Made by a program: the position numbers and the translations under genes. Positions 6,028 through 44,414 of a stretch of DNA of 64,000 nucleotides are shown here, piece by piece. The stretch lies in NCBI GenBank assembly GCA_965224025.1, contig OZ245033.1:867571-931570 (forward strand). Reading direction: 5' to 3'. The notes beneath the pieces are model-generated. The model saw nothing but the letters and a program-made list of their open reading frames with translations, ran no database searches and was not told the DNA's origin. Position 1 is the stretch's first letter; the number at the start of each line of letters is the position of its first letter. The DNA is from Candidatus Multivorans sp. GTDB taxonomy: Bacteria; Acidobacteriota; Thermoanaerobaculia; Multivoradales; Multivoraceae.

Positions 6028-6037
6028 CGTCTGAAAC

Positions 6038-20362: not shown

Positions 20363-20397
20363 GGGGATTATATACGAGAGTGCCGGGGCCGAACGGC

Positions 20398-20673
20398 TCA
20401 CCGGCGCACGTTCTTCGGTGACTTGATGTAGTTGACCTTCACTTCGGCGGCCAGCGCATCGGTCAGTTGCTCGAACGTGGCGTCGATCCGCAAGTCCTTC
20501 CGCAACTCCGCAGCGGACGGCTGGTAGTTCGGATGAACGATGTCCACCGTTGGACGGTTCGGTCCTTTGTCCTTCTCTACTTGCTTTCGAGCCACGCCAG
20601 CTTCTCCCTCAGTTCTGAGATCATGTTTGCTTTGGCGATGCTGTCTTCGCTCGTACCCTTGGCGAGATTGCAC
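20398..20673 (-). CDS. Small hypothetical ORF at the IS end (true start probably GTG 20547)
   Basis: ..VDIVHPNYQPSAAELRKDLRIDATFEQLTDALAAEVKVNYIKSPK. The listed 5' part overlaps the MTase-HNH 3' end. It occupies the same position as ORF 44226..44408 in copy 2. Confidence 0.3.
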   Translation of the reverse strand: MQSRQGYERRQHRQSKHDLRTEGEAGVARKQVEKDKGPNRPTVDIVHPNYQPSAAELRKDLRIDATFEQLTDALAAEVKVNYIKSPKNVRR

Positions 20674-21888
20674 GGTCGGCAGAGCAGTTGCAGGTTGTCG
20701 AGTTCGTCTCCGCCGCCTTCGGCTTGCGGCACGATGTGGTCAACTTCCATGACGTTGAACTGGGTGAAGGTGGAGCACATGGCACACCGCGCTTCCTGCT
20801 GGCCGTAGAGCAGGTGCTTGTGACTGGTCGGCTTCGGCGGCGCTTGCGACTCCGGGACGCTCTCTGCGGTCCAGTACTGGATGTCGTGGAGCACCGTACC
20901 CATGAACGAGACTTCGTTCGTCAGCCGCTCCTTGACGAGCTTGTACGCCATGTCGCTGATGTCCATGCCGATCCACTGGCGGCGCAAACGCTCCGCCGCT
21001 ACGCAGGCTGTGGCGCAACCGCAGAACGGATCCAGGATGATGTCGCCCTCGTTCGACGATGACCGGATGATCCGTTCCAAGAGTGCTAGCGGTTTCTGGG
21101 TCGGATAGCCGACGTTCTCGGAGGACTGCGAGTTCAGGAAGTTGATGTCGAACACATCTGTGTGCCGGTTGCCCTGGGTCGTGTCCACTGCCTTGATGAT
21201 GTCGAAGTCGTTGCGGTTGATCTTCCCTTTGGCTTCCTTCCGGGCCAGAACAGCTTCGTCGTAGATGTACAGGTAGCGCTGTCCGTTCATTCGCTTCGTG
21301 TTGTAGCCAGCCCGAATGAGTTGCTGCTTCCGTGGCGACAACTCGGAATCGTAGGTCGCGGTGTAGTGGAACTTCGTGGAGCGCGAGTAGAACAGGACCG
21401 TGTCGTGAGCGCGCAGAAACTTCTTGGCCCGCGAGTTCGCCACCTTCTTGTATGACCACACGATCTCGTTGCGGAACTGGTTCCGCCCGAAGATGGAGTC
21501 CATCAGCGTCTTGAGGTAGTGGCTGGCGGTTGGATCGCAGTGCAGGTACACGCTGGCCGTGGGCTTCATAACACGCCGTAGTTCGAGCAGCCGCACTGCC
21601 ATGTAGATCAGGTACGCCTTCATGCCCTTCGAGTGCGCGGTGCCCGCCGCGTCGATGGTCTGGTACAGCGCCGGGTGGTGTTCCGCGAGTTCGCCGTGCC
21701 CGCCGCCTTGCTGCCTATCGGCGCAGCGAAGTTCCGGTTCTTGTTGAACGGCGGATCGAGGTAGACCAGATCTACGCATCCGTCCGCCATTCCGCGCAGG
21801 ATGTTGAGGTTGTCGCCCGTGTGGATCGCCCGAACCCAATCCTGCGGTCCGTATCTTGCAGGGACAATTCCGCGCCGTCCGCCGTCAT
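20577..21888 (-). pseudogene. Amino-DNA-methyltransferase (DPPF type) fused to an HNH nuclease; two frame changes plus a short deletion
   Basis: ATG 21888 overlaps the transposase stop (ATGA). DWVRAIHTGDNLNILRGMADGCVDLVYLDPPFNKNRNFAAPIGSKAAG is in a second frame. HGELAEHHPALYQ..SVYLHCDP..GYPTQKPLALLERII..DPFCGCATACVAAE and the C-terminal CAMCS..DHIVPQAEGGGDELDNLQLLCRPCNLAKG are in the third frame (track ORF 20577..21839). Confidence 0.75.
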
Positions 21889-22883
21889 GCCGTCGCTTCC
21901 CGTGCGCCCGAAGGCAGGCCGTTGTCGGCGATTAGGTCACGGTAGCGGAGGCGCTTGCCATCCATGTCTTCGGCGAAGCGGTCCAGTTGCTCCGCCGTGT
22001 CGAACTCGCGGACGTTCTGCCGCCAGCCGAACTCGTCCACGTAGCGCTGCAACTGCTTCGGCGAGAGCTTGTGGAACGTGCCTTTGTGCGAACGCTTGAG
22101 CATGGACCACAGGGACTCGATGCCATTCGTGTGGATCTTGCCGTCCACGTACTCGCCGACCGAGTGCTTGACCGTGCCACGCTCATACTCGGTCAGACCC
22201 GCGTAGGCCCCGGTGTCGTCGGTGTAGACCGTCGCGCCGGGTTCGACATGCTCCCGGACGAATGCCTGTAGGGTCTCGCCATCGGTCGAGCGAACCACGC
22301 GGGCCGCTACCTGTTTCGTCTCGCGGTCCTTCACTCCCACCACCGCCGTCTTGCCGACCGTGCCGCGACCTTCCATCGTCTTCCGCTTCTTGGCGTGCAT
22401 GTTCTTCCGCAACCCGCCGATGTACGTCTCATCGGCTTCAACCGGGCCGGGGAACAGGACGTTCGGCCCGTTCGTCTCAAACGCCGCCCGGAGACGCTGC
22501 GCCATGAACCACGCGGTCTTCTGAGTGACACCGAGGTCGCGGTGCAGCTTCATGCTCGACATGCTCTTGAGGCTGGTCGTCAGCAGGAACGCCGCGAGCA
22601 TCCACTTCTGGAAGCCGATCTTCGAGCCTTCCATGACGGTGCCGGTCTTCGCGCTGAACCGCTGGTAGCAACCCTTCTCGCGGCAGCGGTACGGCATCGA
22701 CTTGTGCTTCGCACCCGTCTGGACATTGTTGGACCCGCAGGCCGGGCAGGTCGGCCCGACGGGCCAGCGGCGCTTGACGTACCATGCCTCCGCCGTCTTG
22801 TTGTCGGGGAATATCCGCATCATCTCCACCAGAGTGATGCCCTTCCGGTATGCCTTGCCGGGTGCCTTGTGCTCAGTCATCAT
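21885..22883 (-). CDS. IS1595-family transposase (N-terminal zinc ribbon + DDE)
   Basis: CPACGSNNV..YRCREKGCYQRFS zinc ribbon, MKLHRDLGVTQKTAWFMAQRLR and VEADETYIGG..VYTDDTGAY..HTNGIESLWSMLKR. It is strongly similar to ORF 41783..42769 in the C-terminal two-thirds. Confidence 0.9.
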   Translation of the reverse strand: MMTEHKAPGKAYRKGITLVEMMRIFPDNKTAEAWYVKRRWPVGPTCPACGSNNVQTGAKHKSMPYRCREKGCYQRFSAKTGTVMEGSKIGFQKWMLAAFLLTTSLKSMSSMKLHRDLGVTQKTAWFMAQRLRAAFETNGPNVLFPGPVEADETYIGGLRKNMHAKKRKTMEGRGTVGKTAVVGVKDRETKQVAARVVRSTDGETLQAFVREHVEPGATVYTDDTGAYAGLTEYERGTVKHSVGEYVDGKIHTNGIESLWSMLKRSHKGTFHKLSPKQLQRYVDEFGWRQNVREFDTAEQLDRFAEDMDGKRLRYRDLIADNGLPSGAREATA

Positions 22884-22890
22884 GCCCAGA

Positions 22891-22920
22891 ATCTTACAGG
22901 AGAGTGCCGGGGGAAGTCAA
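22891..22920 (-). promoter_or_regulatory. Candidate outward-in promoter in the IS end (TTGACT-18-TAAGAT)
   Basis: Minus strand reads cTTGACTtcccccggcactctcctgTAAGATtctgggcATG. The -10 lies only about 7 nt from the ATG, so the mRNA could be leaderless. Confidence 0.3.
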
Positions 22921-22950
22921 GCGCTTTCGGCACTCTCGTATATAATCCCC

Positions 22951-23009
22951 TTCAGAATGTAGCCATTGAGAGTGGGGTCTTCTGGAATCACCAGAACGCG
23001 CACACTCAC
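22951..23009 (-). pseudogene. 5' part of the ATPase-partner gene (GTG start overlapping the ATPase stop), ending in the right TSD copy
   Basis: GTG AGT GTG CGC GTT CTG GTG ATT CCA GAA GAC CCC ACT CTC AAT GGC TAC ATT CTG AA translates as VSVRVLVIPEDPTLNGYILK. GTGA overlap with the stop at 23006-23008. Confidence 0.75.
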
Positions 23010-24229
23010 AAAGCCGCCTCCATCCACCCCTCCGTGAACAGATCGGCCACACCGCCGGCAGCGACGGCCTTGCGGAAGTCGGGAATGTCCTGCAAGGCCG
23101 TGATCGTCGCGTCGCCCTTGTCCGCGTTTCGCCGGCAGACGTAGGTTGTGGCGTACTCGGTTCTCTTGAGCCACGCGAGAACGGCCGGCGAATGAGTGGT
23201 CGCCATCACTTGTGTCGACCGGCGCGCGGCGTTCGACCGGAGAAGCTCCAGGAGCAGGCGCGTACGGCTCGCGTGAATGCCGTTCTCGATCTCCTCGATC
23301 GTCATGATCCGCGGCATGTCGGGCTGAAAGAAGGCCGCCGCGATTGCAGCGAACCGAAGCGTGCCGTCACTCAACACCGGCGCCGGAAACTCTCTGTTCC
23401 CTTCCCGCAACATGAAGAGCGGCTCGCCCACGGCACCAGGTAAGGTGGCAACGCTGTCTACTTCCGCCGGCCGCAGCTCGCGCAGCCACTCCAGATAGCC
23501 GGCTTCCGTTTCCGGATCCGTGCAGATCGTCCTGACCAGGGCGGCGAAGTTCTCTCCGCGCTCGCCCATGCGGTCTACCTGCTGCGCCTGTGAGTAGCCT
23601 CTCAAGACGGTCGGCGCGGGGTCGATTCGCTGCGTGTTGACCAATTCGTCCGCCACCCGCGCAGCGTCCGCCCGATGCTGCGGTTCCACCCGCTTCGCCC
23701 CTTCGAACTGCCCCAGAACTGGCTGGCTCCGCTCGAACTCCAAGTGGCGGGGACGGCCAACCTTGCCGTGGTAATACTCCACTCGATGAACGGGACTCCC
23801 GATGCCGCCGCGGTCGGCATACCGGGAGTCAAAGACGGAACGGCCTGCGTACACCAGCCTCTCCTGTGCCACATGCCCCCTCCGGGGAGACACGGTCACC
23901 GAGTACCGCCATCGCCTTGTCGCCTTCCCAACACTCAGCCTGCCGGCCGCGTCAATCGTGAAAGTCTCCGGCTGTTCGCTCCCTTCGAAACACGCCTTCG
24001 CGCTTCCGCCTCGGATTCCCTCCCAGACTTCACTGGTCGCGCTTCTTGGCTTGCCGTCGAGAATCTCGCTCACCGTGAAGCGGCTACCCACTCCCTGCAG
24101 CACGCGAAGTGCATCGAGGAAATTCGACTTTCCGCTGGCATTGGCACCAACGAACAGGTTCATTCCGCCCAACGCCACGGTCACGTCGCGAAAGCTCTTG
24201 AAGTCCCTGATGGTGATTCGGTCGATCAT
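23006..24229 (-). CDS. SMC/RecF-like ABC-type AAA ATPase (AAA_15/AAA_21 class)
   Basis: IRDFKSFRDV..LFVGANASGKSNFLDAL (Walker A), LSDGTLRF (signature), IMTIEEIENGIH (Walker B) and MATTHSP. Confidence 0.9.
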   Translation of the reverse strand: MIDRITIRDFKSFRDVTVALGGMNLFVGANASGKSNFLDALRVLQGVGSRFTVSEILDGKPRSATSEVWEGIRGGSAKACFEGSEQPETFTIDAAGRLSVGKATRRWRYSVTVSPRRGHVAQERLVYAGRSVFDSRYADRGGIGSPVHRVEYYHGKVGRPRHLEFERSQPVLGQFEGAKRVEPQHRADAARVADELVNTQRIDPAPTVLRGYSQAQQVDRMGERGENFAALVRTICTDPETEAGYLEWLRELRPAEVDSVATLPGAVGEPLFMLREGNREFPAPVLSDGTLRFAAIAAAFFQPDMPRIMTIEEIENGIHASRTRLLLELLRSNAARRSTQVMATTHSPAVLAWLKRTEYATTYVCRRNADKGDATITALQDIPDFRKAVAAGGVADLFTEGWMEAAL

Positions 24230-24478
24230 GGCGTTGCCTGCCCGCTCTATCGCCGCCCGGCCGCACGCTGCCTGAGAACGGGGCTAGGCAGCGCTGGCGC
24301 CGCGCCGTCAATCAACGGACGCCACGGAGGGTAGCAGCGTTCCTCGGCGCCATGGTGCCCCCGTGACAGTCCGCAATCGTGGACTGCACCTACCACTGCT
24401 TGACCAGCGGCTGGTCCTTTGGCCCGGGCCAGCGTCACACGTTGCGAACCGCCCGAGAGCGCCCGCACTCGAGCTCCC

Positions 24479-25936
24479 TCAATACCGCGGCAACGACGGA
24501 TCTACTTCCTCCGCCCAGGCATCGATTCCGCCGGCCAAGTTGTACGCCTGCTGGAAGCCGTGGTCGCGGAGGATGTGCGTGGCTCTCGTCGACCGCGGAC
24601 CGTGGTGGCAGTGGACGACCCACAGGCGCGATGGGTCGAGTTCATCGACCCGGCCCTCGAGTTCGGCGACCGGGATCAGGGTCGAGCCGTCGATCCGGCA
24701 GATCGCGTACTCCTGCGGACCCCGGACGTCGAGAATGCTGAACTCGCGGCCGTCGTTCATCCAGGACTGGACCTGGGTCGGCGTCACGTCGATCATCTCG
24801 TTTAGGGCCGGTTCCTCAGCGACGGCGGGGATGCCGCAGAACTGCTCGTAGTCGATGAGTTCGGTCTGGGTCGGGTTCTCCGAGCAGATCGGGCAGTCCG
24901 GGTTCTTGCGCAGCTTGAGTTCGCGGAAGCTCATGCGGAGCGCATCGAATAGCACCAGACGACCGATCAGGGGATCGCCCTGGCCGATGATCAGCTTGAT
25001 CACCTCGTTGGCCTGAAGGCTGCCGATGATGCCGGGCAGCACGCCGAGGACGCCGCCTTCGGCGCATGAGGGAACGAGTCCCGGCGGCGGCGGCTCGGCG
25101 AACAGGCAGCGGTAGCAGGGGCCCCTGGCGCCCCAGAAGACGGACACCTGGCCCTCGAAGCGGAAGATGGAGCCGTAGACGTTCGGCTTGCCGAGCAGGA
25201 CGCAGGCGTCGTTGACGAGATAGCGGGTCGGGAAGTTGTCCGTACCGTCAACGATCAGGTCGTAGTCTGCGAAGATCTCGAGCGCGTTGCTCGAGTCGAG
25301 CATGACCGGATGCGGCACGAGTTCGATGTGGGGGTTCACCTCGCACAGGCGCTCGACCGCGGCGTCGATCTTGGGGCGGCCCACGTCGGCGTTGCTGTAG
25401 AGCAACTGGCGGTGCAGGTTCGACTCGTCGACGACGTCGAAGTCCACCAGGCCGAGGTGGCCGACTCCGGCGGCGGCGAGGTACATGCCGAGCGGCGAGC
25501 CGAGGCCGCCGGTGCCGATCATCAGCACCCTGGCGGCCTTGAGCTTCAACTGCCCCTCGGAGCCGACCTCGGGCATGATCAGGTGCCGGCTGTAACGGAG
25601 GATTTCCTCCGGGCTCAGCTCGGTGGCGGTCGCCTGGGCCGGGGCCGGTGGTTCCGCCACCGTGCCGCCCGCGATCGACGGGATGATCGCCAGCGTCGCG
25701 TCGCCGACGATCGTCGTCGCCTCCCGTCCCAGGTAGCGCACGTCCTCGTCGTTCAGGAACAGGTTGACGAAGGTCCGCAGCTTGCCGTCGTCGCCGAACA
25801 GGTGGGGCCGCAGCCCTTCGTACCGCGTGACGAGCTCCTCCATCGCCTCGCCGACGGTCGCTCCGGCCACGGCAACCTCGGCGTTCTCGTCGGCGAAGCC
25901 CCGGAGGGGCGTGGGGATTTGTATGAGTACGGTCAT
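24479..25936 (-). CDS. moeZ: CysO/ThiS-like ubiquitin-fold domain fused to a MoeZ-type E1 adenylyltransferase with C-terminal rhodanese
   Basis: The N-terminal 91 aa end in IIPSIAGG. The E1 core follows (RYSRHL, IGTGGLGSP, CYRCLF..CAEGGVLG, CPIC), then the rhodanese domain (VVHCHHGPRS). Confidence 0.9.
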   Translation of the reverse strand: MTVLIQIPTPLRGFADENAEVAVAGATVGEAMEELVTRYEGLRPHLFGDDGKLRTFVNLFLNDEDVRYLGREATTIVGDATLAIIPSIAGGTVAEPPAPAQATATELSPEEILRYSRHLIMPEVGSEGQLKLKAARVLMIGTGGLGSPLGMYLAAAGVGHLGLVDFDVVDESNLHRQLLYSNADVGRPKIDAAVERLCEVNPHIELVPHPVMLDSSNALEIFADYDLIVDGTDNFPTRYLVNDACVLLGKPNVYGSIFRFEGQVSVFWGARGPCYRCLFAEPPPPGLVPSCAEGGVLGVLPGIIGSLQANEVIKLIIGQGDPLIGRLVLFDALRMSFRELKLRKNPDCPICSENPTQTELIDYEQFCGIPAVAEEPALNEMIDVTPTQVQSWMNDGREFSILDVRGPQEYAICRIDGSTLIPVAELEGRVDELDPSRLWVVHCHHGPRSTRATHILRDHGFQQAYNLAGGIDAWAEEVDPSLPRY

Positions 25937-25971
25937 CGTCAGTCTCCGTCAGACTCAGTCTTGTACGTGTT

Positions 25972-26430
25972 TCAGGGCGCACCCGTTTCGGGGCACTGGA
26001 TCGGTTCTTCGTCGAAGCGGGAGCGGTCGTCACTCAGCCGCCAACTGCGCTCGTCGCTGGCGCGGCCCTCGCGCACCGAGACGATCAGGTAACTGTAGCC
26101 CGGCCAGGCATGATCGCGGTCGAAGTCGCTGGGACGCGATGGATGGTCGGGATGGGAGTGGTAGTAACCGACGACATCCAGGCCGTCCGCCCGCGCCTCC
26201 CGCTCGGTCCGCAGGATCACTTCGGGCGGGATCAGGTAACGGTTGTGCCGGTTCTCGTCCTCACGCGTGTTCTCGGCGCCCACCAGCCTCACGACCCGGG
26301 CCGACACCGAACCGTTCCCGCCCGCGGCCTTCTCGGTGCGGCCCACCAGGATGCCGCAGCACTCCTCCGGGTAGGTGGCCTCGCCGTGGGCGCGGATGCG
26401 GGCCAGGTCGTCTGGGGACAGTTCGATCAT
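25972..26430 (-). CDS. mec: JAMM/MPN+ metalloprotease (Mec-like)
   Basis: Internal start MIELSPDD of ORF 25972..27117. Motifs EECCGILVG and GYYHSHPDHPSRPSDFD (HxH-x7-S-xxD). Confidence 0.9.
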   Translation of the reverse strand: MIELSPDDLARIRAHGEATYPEECCGILVGRTEKAAGGNGSVSARVVRLVGAENTREDENRHNRYLIPPEVILRTEREARADGLDVVGYYHSHPDHPSRPSDFDRDHAWPGYSYLIVSVREGRASDERSWRLSDDRSRFDEEPIQCPETGAP

Positions 26431-26474
26431 CCTCGAGATCTCGGTGCGGTCGTTGCGTGCGCCGGTCCGGCGAC

Positions 26475-27476
26475 TCAGTCTTCGTCCCAGAACGGCTCGG
26501 ACAGGTACTTGTCCGCGCCGTCGCACAGGATGGTGACGACGACGACGCGTTCCCCGCCCTCGGCGGCGCGCTCGGCGATCCGCCGTGCCGCCACCACGTT
26601 CGCGCCGGCCGAGATGCCGACCAGCAAACCGCTCCGCCGGGCGAGCGCCTTGACCTCGGCGTACGCGTCCTCCGTGCTTACCGCCGCCTCCTCGTGGGCG
26701 ATCCCCGGATCGTAGATCGCGGGCACCAGGGCGCTCGCCATGTGCTTCATTCCCTCGAGCCCGTGGAACGGTCCGTCGGGCTGCATCGAGATGAGCCGCA
26801 CCTCCGGCGCCCGCTCGGCCAGGTACCTCGCCGTGCCGCAGAAGGTGCCGCTGGTTCCCAGGCCGGCGACGAAGTGGGTAAGGCGCCCCTCCGTCTGCAA
26901 CCAGATCTCCGGGCCCGTGGTTTCGAAGTGGGCGCGCCAGTTGGCGGCGTTGCTGTACTGATCGACGTAGCAGAAGTCGGCCGGCGTCGCCTCGATCATC
27001 CGATGCGCCTCCCGGATCGCGCCGTCCGAGCCCTCCATCGGATCGGTGAGGACGAGCTCGGCGCCGAACGCGCCCAGGATGCGGCGGCGCTCGATCGACG
27101 CGTTCTTCGGCAGGCACAGGGTGACGCCGACGTCCATCGCCGCACCGATCATCGCGAGGGCGATGCCCGTGTTGCCGGAGGTCGCGTCCAGGATGCGGCG
27201 GCCTTCCTCGAGCTGGCCGACATCGCGCGCCGCCAGCATCATGTGGCGCGCGGGCCGGTCCTTCACCGAGCCGCCGGGGTTCGCCATCTCCGCCTTGGCC
27301 AGCAGTTCGGAGCCCAGCGCCTGTGCCGCCGGTCCCAGCGCGTGGCTGAGGTCGAGCAGCGGCGTGTTGCCTATCAGGGACAGCAGCCGCCGGGCGGCAG
27401 CGCCCAGTTCCGCCGGAAGCGGCGGGCCGGCCAAGGGGGCGGCGGAAGCCGCGGCGAGAGGAGGTTCAGCGATCAT
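26475..27476 (-). CDS. cysM: PLP-dependent cysteine synthase (CysM/CysK family)
   Basis: NPGGSVKDRPA, DATSGNTGIALA and GLGTSGT. The start is taken at MIAEPP; ATG 27575 is possible but gives an odd N-terminus. Confidence 0.9.
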   Translation of the reverse strand: MIAEPPLAAASAAPLAGPPLPAELGAAARRLLSLIGNTPLLDLSHALGPAAQALGSELLAKAEMANPGGSVKDRPARHMMLAARDVGQLEEGRRILDATSGNTGIALAMIGAAMDVGVTLCLPKNASIERRRILGAFGAELVLTDPMEGSDGAIREAHRMIEATPADFCYVDQYSNAANWRAHFETTGPEIWLQTEGRLTHFVAGLGTSGTFCGTARYLAERAPEVRLISMQPDGPFHGLEGMKHMASALVPAIYDPGIAHEEAAVSTEDAYAEVKALARRSGLLVGISAGANVVAARRIAERAAEGGERVVVVTILCDGADKYLSEPFWDED

Positions 27477-27604
27477 TCTGTGGGCACCCGGTCGCGGCTC
27501 CAGCACAGGCGGTGGAGCGGCGACCGCGAATTGTTGACCAGAATACTCACATTTGACAACCGGTAGCCTGCACACGACGCCGCGACCCGGTATTCTCCGC
27601 CGCG

Positions 27605-28231
27605 ATGAACGACTCTCCGCACAGCGGCGACGACCGCGTGCCCCCCGGCCAGTACGTCACGAAGAAGTGGCCCGTGCTGTCTGTCGGCGACACGCCGGAG
27701 GTGGACACGGCCGGGTTCGGGATGCGCCTGTTCGGCCGTCTCGAAGCGGAGCACTCCTTCGACTGGCAGACGCTCCAGGCGCTGCCGCGCCGGGAAGTCG
27801 TCGCCGACTTCCACTGCGTGACCCGCTTCTCGACCCTGGACAACCCGTGGTCCGGGTTCTCGACCAGGGACGTTCTGGCCGCCGTGCAGCCCACCGCAGG
27901 CGCCACCAATGCCATGATCCACTGCTACGGCGGCTACACGACGAACCTGCCGCTTAAGGACCTGCTCTCCGAGCACGCGCTGTTCGCCGACCGCCACGGC
28001 GGCGAACCGCTGGCGCCCGGCCACGGCGGTCCACTGCGCCTGGTGGTGCCCCATCTCTACGCTTGGAAGAGCGCCAAGTGGGTCTCCGGCATCGAGTTGC
28101 TGAACGCCGACGAGCGGGGCTTCTGGGAGGAGAACGGGTACCACACGTACGGCGATCCTTGGGCGGAGCAGCGCTTCTCGTCGCAGGAGACGCGGGAAGC
28201 GTGGCAGGTGCGGCGGGCGGTGGGGGGCTGA
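27605..28231 (+). CDS. Sulfite-oxidase-like molybdopterin oxidoreductase (YedY/MsrP-like catalytic domain)
   Basis: FHCVTRFS, HGGPLRLVVPHLYAWKSAKWVSGIELL and GFWEENGYH. Confidence 0.85.
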   Translation: MNDSPHSGDDRVPPGQYVTKKWPVLSVGDTPEVDTAGFGMRLFGRLEAEHSFDWQTLQALPRREVVADFHCVTRFSTLDNPWSGFSTRDVLAAVQPTAGATNAMIHCYGGYTTNLPLKDLLSEHALFADRHGGEPLAPGHGGPLRLVVPHLYAWKSAKWVSGIELLNADERGFWEENGYHTYGDPWAEQRFSSQETREAWQVRRAVGG

Positions 28232-28240
28232 GAATTCGCG

Positions 28241-28292
28241 CTCGCCGCTTCGCGGCGGAGCGCCGGATGCGGACCAGAAGGTCCGCGCACCC
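28241..28292. repeat. REP-like double hairpin, family A variant
   Basis: CGCCGCTTCGCGGCG, then CGCCGGATGCGGACC-AGAA-GGTCCGC. It has the same loop (AGAA) and different stem bases from 10293 and 57636. Confidence 0.65.
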
Positions 28293-28349
28293 AGAGAAGG
28301 TCGACGGCTTGGCGAAGCGCTCTACGCAACTGGTGGGTCGTCGTGCAGG

Positions 28350-28375
28350 CACCGGATGCGGACCAGAACCCGGGT
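28350..28375. repeat. Truncated 5' module of REP family B, abutting the argR stop
   Basis: CACCGGATGCGGACCAGAACCCGGGT versus CGCCGGATGCGGGCCAGAACCCGGGT at 50240. Confidence 0.55.
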
Positions 28376-30299: not shown

Positions 30300-30346
30300 G
30301 CGAGACGTAGCGGACCGACCCGCCCTTCCTCCCGGGTCCCGGGCGT

Positions 30347-31525: not shown

Positions 31526-31532
31526 CTTGAAG

Positions 31533-32393: not shown

Positions 32394-32409
32394 CGCTCCC
32401 GCCCGTTCC

Positions 32410-34649: not shown

Positions 34650-34697
34650 AAGGCGGCGAATAATACACCACAATGGCGCACGATTACTCGCGCGGAA

Positions 34698-37176: not shown

Positions 37177-37180
37177 CAGC

Positions 37181-37729
37181 TCAGTGGAAGCCCTTGAGCT
37201 CGAGCACCGACTCCATGGGAATCGCTTCGGCCCAGTCGAGGGCGTTCTTGTCGCCGATCGTCAGCTTGTCCAGGAACTGTCGCGCCTCGTCACGGTGGGT
37301 GAACAGCCGCCAGATGAAGGTGTGGCCGGCCGGCGCGGTGAAGTACGTGTAGTTCCGCATCCCCTCGCTCAGATCGAAGCCGAGGTCCGATTCGCCGTTG
37401 ACGCCGACGCAGGCCATCGCGATCGCCCGGTACGCGAGTGCGAGCGCCTTGAGCGGCTCCTCGAAGTCGGACAACTCCTCGCGCGACAGCGGCGAGTGGT
37501 AGAGGGCGACCCGCGAACCGTCCTCCTCGGCGAGCACGTTGTACGGCACGTCCGCCCGGTCGAGAGCGTCCCGCGTCTCGCTGGTCATCACGAAGACATC
37601 GTCCGTGTCCTCGACCTTGTACGCGATCGCGAAGGTCTCCGAATCCAGACCGGCGAACGACTCGGCAAGGATGCCCTCATCCTCGATCGTGAAGTAGTAG
37701 AGGCGCGAGATCATCCGACGGGTAGCCAT
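37181..37729 (-). CDS. Hypothetical cytoplasmic protein
   Basis: 182-aa ORF with balanced composition, tightly packed between neighbours. No family recognised. Confidence 0.6.
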   Translation of the reverse strand: MATRRMISRLYYFTIEDEGILAESFAGLDSETFAIAYKVEDTDDVFVMTSETRDALDRADVPYNVLAEEDGSRVALYHSPLSREELSDFEEPLKALALAYRAIAMACVGVNGESDLGFDLSEGMRNYTYFTAPAGHTFIWRLFTHRDEARQFLDKLTIGDKNALDWAEAIPMESVLELKGFH

Positions 37730-37837
37730 GCGTATTCAACTCCTGGGTCGGCCGGAAGCGGCCGAGCGGCCGGAATCCTACCGGATTCGCGGCCCCGCCG
37801 GAGGGTTCCTGACGCGGTTCTTCGGCTCGGCCTTCCG

Positions 37838-38509
37838 TCAGGACTTCGAGCGCTCCTCAAGAAACCGTTCGAACTCCTCCCGCTCCTCCGGCGTCACATC
37901 TTCCAGGCCGATCAGGTACTCGCCACCGGCTTCCGGCAGCGGCGCCTGGATCAGAGTGACGGCGCGCTCGATCGCGTCGCAGTCGAGGCTGACCAGCACC
38001 AGGGCCATCTGCCGGCAGACAGTGAAGAGCTGCGTGCCCAACTCGCTCTCGATCCTCACCTGGGCCGCTTCCGGCATCCGCTCCGTCGTGATCCAGTAAC
38101 CCTCCTCGGCCCGCCGCACGGTGACCCGGCCCTCCAGGTAGAGGGTCTGGCGCGGAACGGTCAGTTCCTGGCTCAGCCGGCTCTCCAGGCTGCCGATGGT
38201 GACTTCCGCGTCGATGCGGCCCGAACCGGCGATCTCCAGTTCGAGCGCGGTTTCGAACACGCCGTCGGGAGCGGGAGTCAGGGTCGCCGCGTGGTGGGTT
38301 ACCGTCAGGGAGTGCTCGGGCGAGCGCAGCATGACCTCGGCGGGGCCGATGTGCACCGGAACCAGATCGTCGATCAGGCGCTCGTAGACCCGGTTGAGAC
38401 GCTCGAAGGACACCACGCGGGTTCCGGGCTCTTCCTGAGCCGCCGCCGGCCCGGACAGGAGCAACGGCGCCAGCACCGCCAGCGGCGGCACCGGCAGCAG
38501 AGCGCTCAT
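37838..38509 (-). CDS. Hypothetical secreted protein
   Basis: Signal peptide MSALLPVPPLAVLAPLLLSGPAAAQE. Its start overlaps the stop of the upstream VWA gene. Confidence 0.65.
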   Translation of the reverse strand: MSALLPVPPLAVLAPLLLSGPAAAQEEPGTRVVSFERLNRVYERLIDDLVPVHIGPAEVMLRSPEHSLTVTHHAATLTPAPDGVFETALELEIAGSGRIDAEVTIGSLESRLSQELTVPRQTLYLEGRVTVRRAEEGYWITTERMPEAAQVRIESELGTQLFTVCRQMALVLVSLDCDAIERAVTLIQAPLPEAGGEYLIGLEDVTPEEREEFERFLEERSKS

Positions 38510-41103
38510 GGGTAGTAGCCGCTGATCGTCCGCGCCTTGAACCGGCCCTTGACCTTCACCTCGACCTCGCGGTACTCGTCGCCGTCGCCGGCCCGGTTCG
38601 AGTTGTACGCCAGGAGGTACTGCGAGCGCAGTTCGCGCTCGATCTCGTCATAGACCGGCGCCAGATCCTCGGCCTTGGAGATGAAGAACGACCTGCCGCC
38701 GGTGACCTTGGCCAGGCCGCTCAGCTTGTTGCGCAGGATCATCTGGGTGCGGCCGATGCCCAGCCCGATCGCGTAGATCGCGACCGCCGAGCGCCGTGCG
38801 TAATCCTCGACGTCAGGAAACGAGACCGTGCTCGCCGTGTCTGCGCCGTCGGAGAGCAGGACCAGAGCGCGCCGGCCTCTGACGCCCCGGAAGTAGTACA
38901 GGCTGGTGATCAGCGCATCGTGCAATGCGGTGTTGCCGGCGGCGCGCAGATTCTCGATCGAGGAAGCGACCGCGCTGACGTCGGACGTCCGGCCGATCAG
39001 CAGCACCGGACGTGAGGCGAAGGCGACCGCGAAGGAACGGTCGCGCGGAGTGATCAGGTTGGCCAGAAACTGCGACGCCGTCCGGCGCGCCTCGCCGAGG
39101 GACGTTTCCATCGACCCCGAAGTATCGATCACGACGCCCAGGGTGAGCGGCAGGTCCTCGACCAGTTCGAACTTCGCGAGCTCCTGCCGGCGCTTGTCTT
39201 CCATGACGGTGAAGTCGGTCTCTAGCAGCGTCGTCACCGGCCTGTTCGCACTGTCGACCACCGTCGTGTAGAGCTCGACCAGGTCGACGTCGACCGTGTC
39301 GGTGAACTCGGGAGCGTTCAGGAAGCGCACGTCCTCCGCGCGGCTGCCATCGTCCAGCGTGGCGGCGACGGTGAGGTACACGAGCTCCTGATCGCCGGCC
39401 GCGGGCACATCGATCTCGGCACGCCACGGCGGTCTGCGCAGCACCGTCTGAACCTCTTCTCCGACCCGGAACTCGACCTCCTGAACCACGCGCTCCTCGG
39501 GCACGATGACCGTGGCGGCGGCATCCACCTTGCCCGTCACCCGAACACCCCGCCGCGGTTCGTTGATCAGCACCCGCAACTCGCCGCGCTGCTGGTTCAG
39601 CACCAGTTCGTCCGCACCCACGACTTCGCCGTTCTCGTCGAGCCCCTCGACCCGAACCACCTGCTCGGCCGGGTACTTCGCCAGCCGCACCTCGGCGGTG
39701 AACGGGGGCCGGCGGCGCGTGACCTGGAGCACGCCGTCGACGACGAACCGCATCGCTGTGATCTCGCTCCCGGTCACCAGGGTCTCTGCCCGCCACAACC
39801 CGAGCACCACCTCGCTTTCGGGCGGCACCAGGACCACGCCGCTGTCCGCATCGAGCGTTGTCTCCGGCAGGTCCGCCACCAACTGCTCCGCCGCCAGGAT
39901 GAGGCGGCGGCGGTCCTCCGAACTCGCCGGCTCCGTCTGCGGCGCCAGCGGCACCTCGACCGGCACCGCCCCGAAGGCCACGGCGCCGCCGATCTCGTCC
40001 CGCACCAGGAACCTCACCAGGACAACCGAACCGGGACGCAGCAAGTGCTCCATCGGCAGCGCCAGCGACCGGTCCTCCGGCGGCGTGCCCGAGAGGAAGC
40101 GCACCCGGAAGGCATCGAAGATCCGGCCCGGCTGCTCGACCACGCCTTCCACGTTGATCCGGACCTGCTCTCTGCCGTCGTCGTCCACGAAGGGCTCGTA
40201 CGCCGCGCCCGGCGGCAGCGAGAAGAGGATCCTGGTCAGGATGCGCTGGCCGCTCCGCGCCGGGAAGGTGACGATCGGATCCTCGAGCTCCAGTGCGGGC
40301 GGCGCCGCCACTTGGTCGGCCGCGGCCGCCACGGCCCAGGCATCCAGATCCTGCGGGGGCCGCAACCACGCATGGAGGCGAGCGGTCGACGGACGTTGCC
40401 GCCGGAAGTCGAACAGGCCCCAGACGCCTGTGGCCCGGTCGACCCGTCGCGCCTCCTCGCAGACCTGCAGGTCGAAACGGCGGGCTCGCAGGAGGCCCCG
40501 AAGCTCTTCGTACTGCTCGAGCCAGTACTCCATCTCGGGCATGTACAGAACCCGCTTCGAGTACTCGGGCAACCAGAGCTGGAACGCCTCGTTCGGCTTG
40601 GGCTGGAAGAGGACCAGGTTCTCGTGCTCGCCCTCCTCCGGCCCGTAACGCCAGATCTCAAGCGGCCGGAAAGTCTGATCGCAGTCGACCGGCTCGATGT
40701 CGTCCGGCGCCCCGTGCAGGAACAGCAACTGCGCGCGGACATCGAAGAACGGCGCACCCGTCTGACGGATCCGCCGCCGACGCTGCTCGATGCCCTCGGC
40801 TAGCTGGGCGCGGTTCAGGAAGGTCCCGATGTACTCGCGCCGGGACGCCGGGTTGAGGTTCTGGACCCGGTGCAACTCAGCCGACGCCAGCAGGTACTGG
40901 GGTCCGTCGAGAAAGAACTCCCGCTCCTCGTCGCTCCACTCGGAGAGCCGCCAACCCACGTCCTGAGCGACCACCGTCGCCGGGACGAGGCAGGCGGCAA
41001 CCAGAAGCAGCCGGCGGATCCGCGCCCCGATTCCCCCCGGTTTCACCACGACATCCGGTACAGCATCCAGCGCCGCGGTGGCGTTGAGGGTGGACAGGTG
41101 CAT
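38506..41103 (-). CDS. Large secreted GWxTD-like / von Willebrand factor A protein (acidobacterial VWFA type)
   Basis: N-terminal PLEIWRYG block, MIDAS VIDTSGSMETSL and a C-terminus ..KARTISGYYP. Confidence 0.85.
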   Translation of the reverse strand: MHLSTLNATAALDAVPDVVVKPGGIGARIRRLLLVAACLVPATVVAQDVGWRLSEWSDEEREFFLDGPQYLLASAELHRVQNLNPASRREYIGTFLNRAQLAEGIEQRRRRIRQTGAPFFDVRAQLLFLHGAPDDIEPVDCDQTFRPLEIWRYGPEEGEHENLVLFQPKPNEAFQLWLPEYSKRVLYMPEMEYWLEQYEELRGLLRARRFDLQVCEEARRVDRATGVWGLFDFRRQRPSTARLHAWLRPPQDLDAWAVAAAADQVAAPPALELEDPIVTFPARSGQRILTRILFSLPPGAAYEPFVDDDGREQVRINVEGVVEQPGRIFDAFRVRFLSGTPPEDRSLALPMEHLLRPGSVVLVRFLVRDEIGGAVAFGAVPVEVPLAPQTEPASSEDRRRLILAAEQLVADLPETTLDADSGVVLVPPESEVVLGLWRAETLVTGSEITAMRFVVDGVLQVTRRRPPFTAEVRLAKYPAEQVVRVEGLDENGEVVGADELVLNQQRGELRVLINEPRRGVRVTGKVDAAATVIVPEERVVQEVEFRVGEEVQTVLRRPPWRAEIDVPAAGDQELVYLTVAATLDDGSRAEDVRFLNAPEFTDTVDVDLVELYTTVVDSANRPVTTLLETDFTVMEDKRRQELAKFELVEDLPLTLGVVIDTSGSMETSLGEARRTASQFLANLITPRDRSFAVAFASRPVLLIGRTSDVSAVASSIENLRAAGNTALHDALITSLYYFRGVRGRRALVLLSDGADTASTVSFPDVEDYARRSAVAIYAIGLGIGRTQMILRNKLSGLAKVTGGRSFFISKAEDLAPVYDEIERELRSQYLLAYNSNRAGDGDEYREVEVKVKGRFKARTISGYYP

Positions 41104-41312
41104 CGGGCATGAGCTTAGCCGGGTTCACCGCACGGACCGTGCCGACTGAATGCGGTCGGGAACCCGCTCGTCTGTTGGACGGCATCGTCGACACCGCCGT
41201 ACCTCATATCGACCGAGGTCCGCCCGCCGTTTTGCAACCATATCGTGGACGACTATCTCCTAGCACAGGAGTTCAGGCGCACCCCGAGCGTCGTCACACC
41301 ATCGGCGAGATT

Positions 41313-41360
41313 GAGTTCCGGTCGCGACACTAGGAGTTCCGGTCGCGACACTAGGAGTTC
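41313..41360. repeat. Tandem 21-bp direct repeat (2 full units plus partial units)
   Basis: GAGTTCCGGTCGCGACACTAG twice (41313-41333, 41334-41354), then GAGTTCG. A degenerate unit AGGAGTTCAGGCGCACC lies upstream. Confidence 0.8.
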
Positions 41361-41363
41361 GCC

Positions 41364-41495
41364 AGCGGTGCTCCGCTGCGCTGTCGCGCAGGGAACGAGG
41401 CGGCGCCCGGATGCGGGCAGGATGCCCGCGTTCCCAGGGGCTTGTTCCATGCAAGTAGGGACAGCGGTGGTCCGCTGCGCTGTCGCGCAGGGAAC
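41364..41495. repeat. Two copies of a 33-nt hairpin-containing repeat, 99 bp apart
   Basis: AGCGGTG(C/G)TCCGCTGCGCTGTCGCGCAGGGAACG at 41364-41396 and 41463-41495, with an internal CTGCGC-TGTC-GCGCAG hairpin. Between them lies GGAACG..GCGGGCA-GGA-TGCCCGC..CGTTCC. Confidence 0.75.
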
Positions 41496-41725
41496 GGGTG
41501 GTGGATTCTGCGGCCGTTGCAGGAGGCGTAGAGTTGGGTCGCGCTGGGCAGCGAGGCCGTCGGAGCACTGGTGTGTTTGCACCCGCAATGCAAGTTTGGC
41601 CCGGACCGTGATCGGCGTTCTGACGCTGGCGGCGCGGCTCTTGCCGCGACCCCGTATGCAAGAGTGACGTTTCCGCCGCGGTCTCTGTCCAGCGCGACCA
41701 TTTGAATGGGGATTATATATTAGGC

Positions 41726-41754
41726 TTGACACGGGCGCTGATTTCCCGTAGTGT
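41726..41754 (+). promoter_or_regulatory. Candidate sigma70-type promoter inside IR-L (TTGACA-17-TAGTGT)
   Basis: TTGACA at 41726-41731, a 17-nt spacer, and TAGTGT at 41749-41754. A GGGAGA Shine-Dalgarno sequence precedes ATG 41783. Confidence 0.35.
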
Positions 41755-41782
41755 CTAGGGACACTGGACGGGAGATGAAACG

Positions 41783-42769
41783 ATGAAGCACAAGGCACCC
41801 GGCAAGGCTTACCGCAAGGGACTGACGTTCGTGCAACTGGCGCGGATGTTCCCCGATGAAGCAGCCGCGCGAGACTGGTTCGAGACGTACCTTTGGCCCG
41901 ATGGAGTGAAGTGGTGCCCGAACTGCGGCGGCGACAACACGCACGCATGCAAGCACAAGCAGATGCCGTACCGCTGCCGCGACTGCAAGCGGTACTTCAG
42001 CGTCAAGACCGGCACGCTCATGGCTGGTTCGCCGTTGCCTCTGTTGACGTGGCTCTACGCGATCTACCTCGAACTCACATCGCTCAAGGGCGTATCGAGC
42101 ATGAAACTGCACCGTGACCTAGGCGTCACTCAGAAGACCGCTTGGCACATGCTCCAGCGCATCCGCGAAGCGTTCGCCGCCGAAGGGCCGGAAGTCCGGT
42201 TCGACGGTCCCGCCGAAGTGGACGAGACGTACTTCGGCGGTCTGCGGAAGAACATGCCGAAGTGGAAGCGTGCGGAGCTTGAAGGTCGCGGCACGGTCGG
42301 CAAGACCGCCGTGGTGGGCATCAAGGACCGCGAGACCAAGAAGGTCGCGGCGAAGGTGGTCCGCTCCACCGACGGCGAGACCCTACAGGCGTTCGTGCGC
42401 GAGCACGTCGAACCCGGCGCGATGGTGTACAGCGACGATACCGGGGCGTACAGCGGTCTGACCGAGTACGAGCGTGGCACGGTGAAGCACTCGGTCGGCG
42501 AGTACGTGGACGGCAAGGTCCACACGAACTCGATCGAGAGCTTCTGGTCGATGCTCAAGCGGGCGCACAAGGGTGTGTTCCACAAGATCAGTCCGAAGCA
42601 CCTGCAACGCTACGTCGATGAGTTCGCGGGTCGGCAGAACATCCGCGAGTACGACACGCTGGCGCAGATGGTCGCCGTCACGGAGGGACTCGCGGGCAAG
42701 CGGCTCCGCTATCGTGACCTGATCGCCGACAACGGCCTGCCGTCGGGCGCGCGCGAGGCCGCCGCATGA
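41783..42769 (+). CDS. IS1595-family transposase
   Basis: CPNCGGDN..YRCRDCKRYFS, MKLHRDLGVTQKTAWHMLQRIR and VDETYFGG..VYSDDTGAY..HTNSIESFWSMLKR. Confidence 0.9.
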   Translation: MKHKAPGKAYRKGLTFVQLARMFPDEAAARDWFETYLWPDGVKWCPNCGGDNTHACKHKQMPYRCRDCKRYFSVKTGTLMAGSPLPLLTWLYAIYLELTSLKGVSSMKLHRDLGVTQKTAWHMLQRIREAFAAEGPEVRFDGPAEVDETYFGGLRKNMPKWKRAELEGRGTVGKTAVVGIKDRETKKVAAKVVRSTDGETLQAFVREHVEPGAMVYSDDTGAYSGLTEYERGTVKHSVGEYVDGKVHTNSIESFWSMLKRAHKGVFHKISPKHLQRYVDEFAGRQNIREYDTLAQMVAVTEGLAGKRLRYRDLIADNGLPSGAREAAA

Positions 42770-44212
42770 CCATCCTCGGTTCGTTCAGTCTGGTTCCAAA
42801 CAGCCTCTACTACGGCGACTGCCTCGAAGTCATGGGCGGTTGGCCAGCCGAGTCGGTGGATCTGATCTACCTCGATCCGCCGTTCAACTCGAAGGCGGAC
42901 TACAACCAGTTGTTCGGCACCGAGAACGGCGTGCCGGCCCAAGTTCGGGCGTTCACCGACACATGGACATGGAACGACTCGGCGGCCGAGCGGTACGACC
43001 GTTTCAGCCGTGCAGTCGCGCATCCCGCGCACAAGGCGGTAGTCGGCCTGCACATGGCGCTAGGTCCATCGGGGATGCTCGCGTACCTCACCTACATGGC
43101 CGAGCGGCTCGCGGAGTGCAAGCGCCTGCTCAAGCCGACCGGCTCCATCTACCTGCACTGTGACCACACGGCGGGCGCGTACCTGAAGATGCTCATGGAC
43201 GCGATCTTCGGAGCGAACAATCGCCGAAGCGAACTCCACTGGTACTACTACAACAAGATGCACGACAGCCGGAAGAAGCTGTTTGCTGCCGCCACGGACA
43301 CAATCTTCTTCTATGTCAAGGATGTGGACTCCGGTTTTTCGTTTGAACAACTTCAAGAACGCCGCGAAAAGCCCGTCAAGCAGCTTGTACGAGCCAAAGT
43401 CAACGGCCGCATGGTCAACAAGCGAGACGAAGACGGTCGGCTGATGTACCAGACCAAGACACATAGAACCATTGACAATGTGTGGCGGATACCCTGTTTG
43501 CAACCAGCATCGAGGGAGAGATTAGGCTGTCCAACACAGAAGCCCCGTGCGCTGTTGGATCGCATCATCAAGGCGTCTTCTAGGGAAGGTGACTTGGTGC
43601 TTGACCCGTTCTGCGGTTGTGGCACGACGATAGACGCGGCGAATCGACTGCAACGGCAGTGGGTCGGCATCGACCTTTCACCGTTCGCCACTCGCCTTGT
43701 GCGTGACCGCAGGCTCAAGGATGCGAGTATCCAGATCTTCGGTATCCCGACAGATGTTGAAGGCGCACGGCTCCTGCTACGCAACAACCCGTTCGACTTC
43801 GAGGCGTGGATCGTTACGTCGGTGGACGGGCTGGCGGCGAACGAGGTCCAGGTAGGCGACGGCGGCATCGACGGGCGCGGCAGGATGTTCACCGTGCCGG
43901 ACGATGAAACAGGCTTGGTGCTCGCTCAGGTGAAGGGGGGGGTACACCGCATCGGCGCTGCGGGACTTCGAGGGCACGATGGGCCGCGAGAACGCCACGG
44001 CGGGCATCTTCGTCACCTTGAAGCGCGTCACAACGTCCAGTGCCCGCGCGGCTGCCAAGGCGATGGGCGAGTACCGCGTAGGCGCGACGCGCTACCCTCG
44101 GCTCCAGTTCTGGTCCGCAGAGGAGTATCTGAGGGGCGTCCGTCCTCACCTACCCGCGATGGCCGACCCGTACACCGGCAAAGCAGTTCAGACCGACATG
44201 TTCACCGGATAG
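42766..44212 (+). pseudogene. Amino-DNA-methyltransferase (DPPF) fused to a PD-(D/E)xK (Mrr-like) nuclease domain, out of frame at a G8 tract
   Basis: VDLIYLDPPFNSK, SIYLHCDH and GCPTQKPRALLDRII..DPFCGCGTTIDAAN. Next GDGGIDGRG..LAQVKGG, then a frame change to YTASALRDFEGTMGRENATAGIFVTLKR (ORF 43979..44212). With G7 the gene would be 482 codons, uninterrupted. Confidence 0.8.
43935..43942 (+). repeat. G8 homopolymer at the frame break of the MTase-nuclease gene
   Basis: gtgaaGGGGGGGGtac. The downstream frame has a TGA at 43931-43933, so the shift must occur inside the tract. Confidence 0.9.
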
Positions 44213-44225
44213 CAGGGAGGAAGCG

Positions 44226-44408
44226 TTGCCCAAGAAGCCGAAGCGCCACACGGAACACAAGAAGGTGTACAAAGCCGAGTACGGCGGCGCTACGCCCGCG
44301 CAGGTCACGCTTGCGCTTCTACGCTACCGTCCAAACGCACCCGAAGCCGTCACGAAGCGTTTGCCACCGCAGGTTCAAGCCGACCCCGCTATCAAGTCTA
44401 GTGTATAA
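44226..44408 (+). CDS. Small hypothetical ORF at the IS end (TTG start)
   Basis: MPKKPKRHTEHKKVYKAEYGGATPAQVTLALLRY. Its stop lies inside IR-R, and its position is equivalent to 20398..20673 in copy 1. Confidence 0.3.
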   Translation: MPKKPKRHTEHKKVYKAEYGGATPAQVTLALLRYRPNAPEAVTKRLPPQVQADPAIKSSV

Positions 44409-44414
44409 TCCCCC

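Follow-up and report, generated by a model that had tools for sequence, protein, structure and literature searches.

The window analysed here, a 64,000-nucleotide stretch of Candidatus Multivorans sp. (contig OZ245033.1), harbors two insertion sequences (IS) of the IS1595 family, each encoding a transposase followed by a DNA methyltransferase (MTase) fused to a nuclease. Both are transporter IS (tIS), as displayed by the transposase, the terminal inverted repeats (IRs), the 8-bp target-site duplication (TSD, copy 1) and the passenger genes within the IRs. The tIS concept, i.e., IS with passenger genes, was defined on the IS1595 family (PMC3129680, PMC9330008). The interpretation retained with good confidence is that such tIS carry mobile, probably phase-variable, restriction-modification (RM)-like passengers. 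Related elements insert as whole units, passenger genes and their target-recognition domains appear to be exchanged between backbones, and in the lineage with an HNH nuclease a short tandem repeat of variable length precedes the MTase. The two copies in the window are themselves probably just active-looking IS elements with dead passengers, because both cargo genes are pseudogenes or off.

Two IS1595 elements and the mobility of whole units

The initial annotation, made from the sequence alone, had placed the elements at 20363-22950 (copy 1, genes on the minus strand) and 41708-44413 (copy 2, plus strand), and both placements held exactly. The IRs of copy 1 were perfect over 23 nt (GGGGATTATATACGAGAGTGCCG, 100% complementary), with identical 8-mers (TTCAGAAT) directly abutting both of them. 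Those of copy 2 were imperfect and began with the same GGGGATTATATA as in copy 1. Both transposases matched DDE_Tnp_IS1595 (PF12762) over their full length (Table 1). The zinc ribbon PF12760 passed the cut-off of 25.4 bits in copy 2 and remained below it in copy 1 (18.7 bits), where the CxxC...CxxxxC pattern was present despite the score. Described at first as nearly identical in their C-terminal two-thirds, the two transposases turned out to share 69% identity over their whole length; the value falls to about 50% for the N-terminal third and reaches 78-93% only within residues about 160-280. Among the loci retrieved below (designated by L numbers), transposase 2 was 88% identical to that of L001/L002, and transposase 1 was 87-96% identical to those of L033, L037, L038 and L039. 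The window element ends read GGGGATTAT, and the transposase displayed ...HTNGIESLWSMLK, with E and then K seven residues on. GGnnATTAT ends and a DDE(7)K motif are marks of the ISNwi1-like subgroup in the ISfinder classification, to which the window elements may belong. Siguier, Gagnevin and Chandler reportedly described, in 2009, IS1595 subgroups with passenger genes (ISNwi1+, ISPna2+ and ISNha5).

A scan with transposase 2, with one genome per species, returned 28 loci, nearly all from metagenome-assembled genomes named Candidatus Multivorans, Bryobacterales, Thermoanaerobaculia, Candidatus Marinacidobacterales and various Proteobacteria. Both ends could be placed in 15 of the 28 loci, and all 15 displayed GGG[GA/C]ATTATA... 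IRs and a perfect 8-bp TSD around the whole element. Five of these elements were cargo-less 1245-bp copies in one Bryobacterales genome (L007, L008, L010, L011, L020), which also harbored a sixth copy of the same backbone with another transposase nested in it (L009, 4193 bp). Identical 2599-bp units encompassing transposase, MTase-HNH gene and small open reading frame (ORF) were found at two sites of a single genome, with different TSDs (L001, L002). The MTase-HNH gene was inverted in L006 (2880 bp), and inverted and broken up by other IS1595 copies in L015 and L016 (4867 and 4070 bp, respectively). The remaining TSD-flanked elements carried a Dam-like MTase and a separate HNH endonuclease (L019, 3180 bp), a small MTase and an endonuclease VII-like gene (L021, 2863 bp), or other small genes without MTase (L013 and L017, 2296 and 2704 bp, respectively). 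The closest cargo homologues yielded five further complete, TSD-flanked elements (L033, L037, L038, L039, L204). Perfect 8-bp TSDs were present in 20 or more relatives.

The proposal that the IS serves to carry single-polypeptide MTase-nuclease genes was borne out by at least 14 related elements with perfect 8-bp TSDs bracketing the cargo and by the multi-copy genome of L001/L002. The true IS ends enclosed the cargo, and hidden Markov models confirmed the nuclease motifs, the two points on which the initial annotation had made its proposal depend. Cargo-less copies, cargo in either orientation, alternative cargos and dead cargo beside intact transposases argue that the cargo is a passenger, dispensable for transposition. 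All TSDs of the window, L001-L021, L033-L039 and L204 elements were AT-rich 8-mers (e.g., TTCAGAAT, TAAAAAAA, TTTTCTTT, AATTATTT) without a common motif, which suggests that these elements prefer AT-rich targets.

The MTase-HNH and MTase-Mrr architectures were very common (at least 8000 matches each) and also occurred outside IS, in an integrative element (L032) and beside mobilisation genes (L042). In the Holophagales locus L030/L031, the transposase was truncated at its 5' end and the MTase-Mrr gene was intact. In unrelated JGI metagenomes, an IS1595 transposase was found within 2.5 kb of 8 of the 80 distant MTase loci, two of which (L045, L085) displayed an element bounded by the same IR type; these relatives were all distant (at most 50% identity) and useful only as an estimate of background transposase linkage. 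A tblastn search of the intact MTase-HNH homologue P0121 against PLSDB plasmids retrieved matches to the MTase domain only, at 40% identity or less, and no close relatives. The 80 loci from IMG/VR were all 48% identical or less, mostly over the MTase domain only, and the close clade is thus not evidently viral.

Several relatives showed particularities of their own. In L014, L015 and L016 (Bryobacterales), another element of the IS1595 family (transposase about 31% identical) had inserted once or twice into the MTase-HNH cargo, a nested IS decay of the cargo. The element of L033-L036 sits in a TonB-dependent receptor gene, from which gene callers yielded a chimeric Plug and DDE_Tnp_IS1595 protein of 508 aa. 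The element of L037, of the copy 1 type (3431 bp, perfect TSD ATTGCTAA), contained about 740 bp extra between left IR and transposase (1071-1812), where gene calling placed two short genes of 67 and 96 aa.

Cargo genes, backbone ORF and modular exchange

The frame-corrected cargo of copy 1 matched the Pfam domains N6_N4_Mtase (PF01555, E 5.5e-47) and HNH (E 6.6e-12), while the reconstructed cargo of copy 2 (481 aa) matched N6_N4_Mtase (E 2.1e-48) and Mrr_cat (26 bits, cut-off 21). The MTase motifs DPPF and DPFCGC were present, as was GIDG...QVK in the Mrr part. PADLOC assigned the MTase to Type II and Type III MTase models, and its N-terminal half matched EcoP15I-type Mod chains in the PDB; the PDB search with the MTase-HNH protein returned entries for the MTase part only and none for the HNH part. 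Among 11 aligned homologues, D382, H383, N397 and N406 of the HNH domain and its four zinc cysteines (2x CxxC) were invariant. The two fusions reported in the initial annotation were thereby recovered in domain content, after frame correction, with neither cargo ORF intact.

Three-frame translation of the copy 1 cargo required three reading frames, one for the overlapping ATG, one for the N-terminus with DPPF and one for the remainder. A 49-nt deletion removed AAFKDTWTLDDVDLxW and shifted the frame, while every intact homologue, including P0121 and P0122 at 89-90% identity, kept this segment; because of this deletion the copy 1 cargo is irreversibly dead. In copy 2, the frame shifted within a G8 run, just after the QVK catalytic motif, and a G7 or G10 run would restore the frame to MFTG*, ending at 44212. 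The cargo so reconstructed was covered over 96-100% by homologues of 470-480 aa (e.g., P0002 at 69% identity), and the 619-aa ORF listed earlier for copy 2 was an out-of-frame read-through beyond the IS end. The MTase reading frame of copy 2 was complete, and only the C-terminal part of the nuclease domain was lost. Contig L029, a separate assembly of the same locus (99.9% identical), displayed the same G8 despite 11 other homopolymer differences from the window, and the frameshift was therefore treated as real and may be reversible. Homologues encoded KGGGY without homopolymer, i.e., the G8 run was not conserved, and its length falls below the G9 criterion of PMC5909438. Phase variation at this run is not claimed, the run being unconserved and L029 being the same locus and not an independent one.

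The gene order first described (transposase, MTase starting on the transposase stop as ATGA, small ORF at the IR) stood in part: the overlap was found in both copies and the small ORF stopped 12 nt short of the IR in copy 1 and ended within the IR in copy 2, while the overlapping ATG of copy 1 was out of frame with the MTase. The small ORFs of the window formed one family with the core motif ATPEDLARALMRP, whose long and short subtypes were bridged in the alignment by the version of L019. Small ORF 1 had homologues at 74-80% identity in L033, L037 and L039 and at 69% in L038, and small ORF 2 was 68% identical to an ORF in L001. A profile search retrieved 226 proteins of 45-70 aa, all without name or Pfam domain. 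Pfam gave zero matches for both window ORFs, and the predicted structure (predicted local distance difference test, pLDDT, 65; one short helix) was uninformative. The cargo-less 1245-bp IS also carried the small ORF, antisense to and overlapping the 3' end of the transposase gene (L007, about 5976-6080, minus strand), and in L013-L018 it held this antisense position with the cargo beyond it. Because of this presence in cargo-less IS and this kept position, the small ORF is assigned to the IS backbone and not to the MTase cassette. To our knowledge, IS1595 elements have been described with a single ORF.

Comparison of copy 2 with L001 showed 84% DNA identity over left IR and transposase (1-1064) and 80% over the small-ORF tail, the entire intervening MTase-nuclease ORF being unrelated except for short MTase motifs. 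What differs between the two is therefore the cassette, replaced at the point where the transposase gene stops. The initial annotation had proposed that only the nuclease module was swapped; the whole MTase-nuclease ORF was in fact replaced, the MTase domains of copies 1 and 2 sharing 37-42% identity. Nuclease-domain shuffling on a common MTase was accordingly rejected, with MTase domains about 40% identical and each fusion type forming its own large family. Within the HNH lineage, exchange took another form. Copy 1, L001, L038 and L039 shared 80-87% DNA identity on either side of a segment of about 320-340 nt without similarity (copy 1 positions 1496-1838), which corresponded in the protein alignment to the central target-recognition region. 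At least six versions of this region were found between nearly invariant N- and C-terminal parts, a mosaic indicating that target-recognition domains have probably been exchanged between near-identical scaffolds. The frame disruptions, the variable 7/8-nt repeat and this target-recognition-domain swapping were all missing from the initial annotation.

The junction repeat and the weighing of alternatives

Every element of the HNH lineage displayed a 7- or 8-nt tandem repeat between the start codon of the ATGA/GTGA overlap and the MTase N-terminus (GIVPxRYGPQDWVRAIHTGDNL). The 7-nt units were CGGGGGC in L037 (10.0 copies), GCGGGAC in L039 (8.6 copies) and L204 (more than 15 copies, broken by a scaffold gap), GCGCGAA in L038 (6.6 copies) and L205 (4 copies), and CCGACCG in L040 (32.4 copies). 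The 8-nt unit CGACCGGG was present in 4 copies in L033 and in 5 copies in L035 and L036. At the same junction position, two copies were found in L001 and L002 and two copies of GACGGCG in window copy 1. All Tandem Repeats Finder arrays at the junction were perfect, with five unit sequences, none a multiple of 3 in length. Half of the short-unit arrays detected (7 of 14, about 200 loci scanned) lay at this one junction. L033, L034, L035 and L036 represented a single insertion (in the TonB-receptor gene) in four assemblies, from four metagenomes: a single 8-nt unit was the sole within-element difference between L033 and L035/L036, and L034 differed within the element only in the repeat region, where its repeat was longer and noisy.

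Over the 27 codons from the repeat to the first internal ATG, 12 of the 19 variable sites fell at third positions and 7 codons changed only synonymously. These codons thus evolve as coding sequence and must be translated, for which a start codon is needed upstream of the repeat. The L038 allele was in frame, and its called full-length protein (P0123) began with the translated repeat (MSAKREARSAKREARS...). It was the only one of the 10 scored alleles in frame with the overlapping start; in 4 of the 9 out-of-frame alleles, the MTase ORF continued the frame of the transposase, with one TGA between them.

Criteria for phase-variable methylase genes, and a model in which repeat expansion is followed by target-recognition-domain diversification, are given in PMC5909438. 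The criteria ask for a repeat in or at the 5' end of an ORF, with at least 3 units of a length that is not a multiple of 3, and such repeats were found in L033-L040, L204 and L205. Variation in tract length was displayed by L033 on the one hand and L035 and L036 on the other, in an otherwise identical element. By analogy, the junction repeat and the domain alleles match the criteria and the model for phase-variable Type III mod genes, and the MTase-HNH passengers are probably phase-variable, with the repeat as putative on/off switch.

Arrays were also observed away from an intact element. In L040 (3192-3418), the perfect 32-copy CCGACCG array preceded an MTase-HNH gene without transposase, beside a TIR_2-domain gene, and the putative repeat switch persisted after loss of the IS backbone. 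In L032 (5468-5536), in a setting with integrase and TrwC, a (GGATCACC)x8.5 array followed an MTase-Mrr gene at a distance of 19 nt and could serve to switch the adjacent gene on the minus strand.

Taken together, these features make up a backbone of IRs, zinc-ribbon DDE transposase and small conserved ORF, with a cassette slot right after the transposase stop codon. The RM-like cassette encodes an N6/N4 MTase of beta class, similar to Type III Mod, whose target-recognition domain is central and to which an HNH or Mrr-type nuclease domain is joined at the C-terminus. This gene would be co-transcribed with the transposase, and its translation would rely on termination-reinitiation where the two genes overlap (ATGA/GTGA). 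The MTase would mark host DNA at the site set by the target-recognition domain and the nuclease would attack unmarked DNA, which may defend the carrier cell, hinder loss of the element, or both. In the HNH lineage, slippage of the 7/8-nt repeat after the start codon would bring the gene in or out of frame, and recombination would swap target-recognition domains and whole cassettes between backbones. Three repeat phases can be envisaged, giving an independent MTase-HNH protein, an ORF in the transposase frame across a single TGA (possibly a read-through fusion), or an off state. A more specific proposition is put forward tentatively, with somewhat more doubt than belief: autonomous IS of 2.6-3.4 kb may spread, among sponge-associated bacteria, a one-gene Mod-like MTase-HNH system that starts on the transposase stop, is gated by a hypermutable repeat with three phases and has its specificity re-assorted by domain and cassette swaps.

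Several observations weigh against mobile, phase-variable RM-like passengers. The flanks of copy 2 (ATTTGAAT and CTTCCAAG) differ, without duplication. The Mrr domain weakly matched the 'inactive REase' family NA-iREase1, and the nuclease domains could be inactive or have another role. The AlphaFold model of the MTase-HNH protein (P0121, 11-sequence alignment) reached a pLDDT of 54, too poor for structural support. A simple mutation or a miscalled homopolymer may account for the frameshift in the G8 run of copy 2, and window copy 1, with 2 repeat units, lies below the published threshold. The low share of in-frame alleles fits costly expression and, equally, a wrong start-codon assignment. As for the missing TSD of copy 2, recombination between copies 1 and 2 was considered and rejected, because copy 1 retains its perfect TSD.

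Among the competing explanations, the best placed, yet unlikely, is that the cargo is a mobile phasevarion, in which the MTase is selected and alters gene expression on toggling, while the nuclease is vestigial, regulatory or only DNA-binding. A repeat switch combined with several target-recognition alleles on a Mod-like MTase is the phasevarion signature (PMC5909438), and the frameshift of copy 2, the NA-iREase1 match and the intact MTase-Mrr gene beside the truncated transposase of L030/L031 would all agree with it. The invariance of the catalytic and zinc-binding HNH residues across diverged alleles nevertheless points to a working nuclease, a switch of the copy 1 type would toggle MTase and nuclease jointly, and most alleles were out of frame. 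It is improbable, to a further degree, that the disruptions are assembly or sequencing artefacts and that both cargo genes are intact in the organism: homopolymers such as G8 are classic error sites and, at 11 homopolymers, the window and the near-identical contig L029 disagree, but a 49-nt deletion is untypical of read errors, the G8 length is common to L029 although other homopolymers differ, and the window contains unbroken long ORFs at other places, such as one of 865 aa at 38506-41103. Hardly credible, finally, is a role of the MTase-nuclease in transposition (marking or nicking target or donor DNA, homing-like, with co-production through the stop/start overlap), close to the target marking considered in the initial annotation; the overlap is seen in relatives as well as in the two window copies, the elements have a conserved cassette slot and the 'phase 1' repeat (the 4 of 10 alleles in the transposase frame) might yield a transposase-MTase-HNH fusion by TGA read-through, but the transposase alone suffices in the TSD-flanked, cargo-less relatives, present in six copies in a single genome, L006 and L014-L016 carry the cargo in inverted orientation, a split MTase and nuclease pair (L019) or non-MTase genes (L013, L017) can take its place, and the TSDs are merely AT-rich 8-mers.

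Genomic setting, comparison with known systems and meaning

Copy 1 interrupts a gene located 3' of a 407-aa AAA_21/AAA_15 ATPase gene (23006-24229), the halves lying at 19844-20362 and 22959 to about 23020 (minus strand). The best PADLOC match of the ATPase was the candidate defence protein PDC-M07A (E 1e-68), with weaker matches to HEC-01A, AriA and AbiLi. The interrupted partner gene, reconstructed to 189 aa, gave zero Pfam or PADLOC matches. Because copy 1 sits inside this partner gene, its insertion has knocked out a candidate defence pair (ATPase and partner). A perfect 21-nt tandem repeat (GAGTTCCGGTCGCGACACTAG, 2.3 copies, 41313-41360) was found between a VWA-domain gene and copy 2. The sole other G/C run of at least 8 nt in the window was a C10 homopolymer (45078-45087), one base shorter in contig L029. 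Coordinates of the parts of both elements are given in Table 1.

Table 1. Parts of the two IS1595-type elements, in window positions
Feature	Positions	Strand	Remarks
TSD TTCAGAAT, copy 1 left	20355-20362		same 8-mer at 22951-22958
Copy 1 terminal IR, cargo-side end	20363-20385		23 nt; same IR in L033, L037, L038, L039
Small ORF 1, 65 aa + stop	20398-20595	-	long subtype of the ATPEDLARALMRP-motif small-protein family
Copy 1 MTase-HNH cargo pseudogene	20577-21888	-	Pfam N6_N4_Mtase and HNH; HNH about 20652-20786
49-nt deletion junction in copy 1 MTase	21700-21701	-	from DNA alignment with L001
Junction-repeat remnant (GACGGCG)x2	21873-21886	-	between overlapping ATG and MTase N-terminus; ATG out of frame ('phase 2')
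Transposase 1, 332 aa, intact	21885-22883	-	DDE_Tnp_IS1595 E 3.4e-42, zinc ribbon
Copy 1 terminal IR, transposase-side end	22928-22950		perfect pair of the cargo-side IR
TSD TTCAGAAT, copy 1 right	22951-22958		same 8-mer as left flank
Copy 2 left IR GGGGATTATATATTAGGCTTGA	41708-41729		similar to the IR of L001/L204
Transposase 2, 328 aa, intact	41783-42769	+	DDE_Tnp_IS1595 E 1e-39, Zn_ribbon_IS1595 30.7 bits
Copy 2 MTase-Mrr cargo, frame-broken	42766-44212	+	N6_N4_Mtase and Mrr_cat (about 43786-44062); ATG overlaps transposase stop (ATGA)
G8 homopolymer, copy 2 frameshift site	43935-43942	+	right after AQVKGG
Small ORF 2, 60 aa	44226-44408	+	short subtype, same small-protein family; stop inside right IR
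Copy 2 right IR	44392-44413		flanks ATTTGAAT / CTTCCAAG without TSD

The elements share with IS1595 tIS the zinc-ribbon transposase with DDE_Tnp_IS1595 domain, the short IRs, the 8-bp TSD and the location of the passengers 3' of the transposase within the IRs. In the literature searched, no description was found for tIS of a junction repeat switch, domain or cassette exchange, or a conserved small ORF. ISNwi1-type tIS with an MTase-nuclease cargo were likewise absent from it, the name ISNwi1 occurring in two unrelated papers only. Likewise, no description was found of an autonomous IS1595-type element with a Mod-like MTase-nuclease on the transposase stop gated by a 7/8-nt repeat, in a search that did not cover ISfinder, REBASE and the 2009 IS1595 paper.

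Cleavage and methylation in one protein, with one target-recognition domain setting specificity, are also features of Type IIC/IIG enzymes (MmeI or BpuSI class), whose specificity is changed by domain swapping. These enzymes combine an N-terminal PD-(D/E)xK domain with a gamma-class MTase, whereas the cargo MTase here is beta-class and its HNH or Mrr domain is C-terminal. We know of no biochemically characterised fusion of a beta-class MTase with a C-terminal HNH or Mrr domain.

The resemblance to Type III mod phasevarions encompasses a beta-class N6/N4 MTase, a central target-recognition domain, a 5' coding repeat of non-multiple-of-3 unit, length variation and many domain alleles per scaffold. 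Phase-variable mod genes include one with a 7-nt unit that follows the start codon immediately (CAGCGAC[n], PMC5909438), and both phase-variable methylases and target-recognition-domain swapping have been firmly documented in Type III and Type I systems (PMC5909438). In contrast to these, the genes described here have no Res partner and a nuclease fused to the MTase, lie inside an IS and start on the transposase stop. Their hosts are uncultured sponge-associated Acidobacteriota and Proteobacteria, whereas phasevarions have mostly been characterised in host-adapted pathogens.

RM genes inside IRs, with 8-bp TSDs, were described by empty-site comparison in Xanthomonas oryzae, with RM regarded as mobile selfish units (Furuta, Abe & Kobayashi 2010, PMC2853133). 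Those transposon-like units lack a transposase and were regarded as non-autonomous or of unknown mobility, whereas the elements here, 2.6-2.9 kb long, are autonomous through an IS1595 transposase that they encode themselves. Addiction modules within unit transposons are represented by toxin-antitoxin pairs in Tn3-family transposons (PMC9330008), which have in common with the present elements a passenger of the post-segregational-killing type within a transposon. The transposase family and the kind of passenger differ, and addiction is here only a hypothesis.

The finding is genuine and more than chance, although the initial annotation overstated it. RM genes have long been argued to be selfish mobile units, and compact autonomous vehicles for them have rarely been documented; a 2.6-kb unit of transposase and single MTase-nuclease demonstrably inserts whole, with TSDs, in many genomes. 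The repeat, the domain shuffling and the small ORF raise the interest of the family, not of the two decayed copies in the window. The long-read data behind these genomes already contain repeat-length distributions and possibly methylation kinetics. If the repeat switches the gene, phase-variable methylases would extend to uncultured animal symbionts, and a transposable element would be directly linked to the switching of epigenetic state or defence. A transposable phasevarion or defence gene, if true, could help explain the many transposases and RM genes in sponge symbiont genomes.

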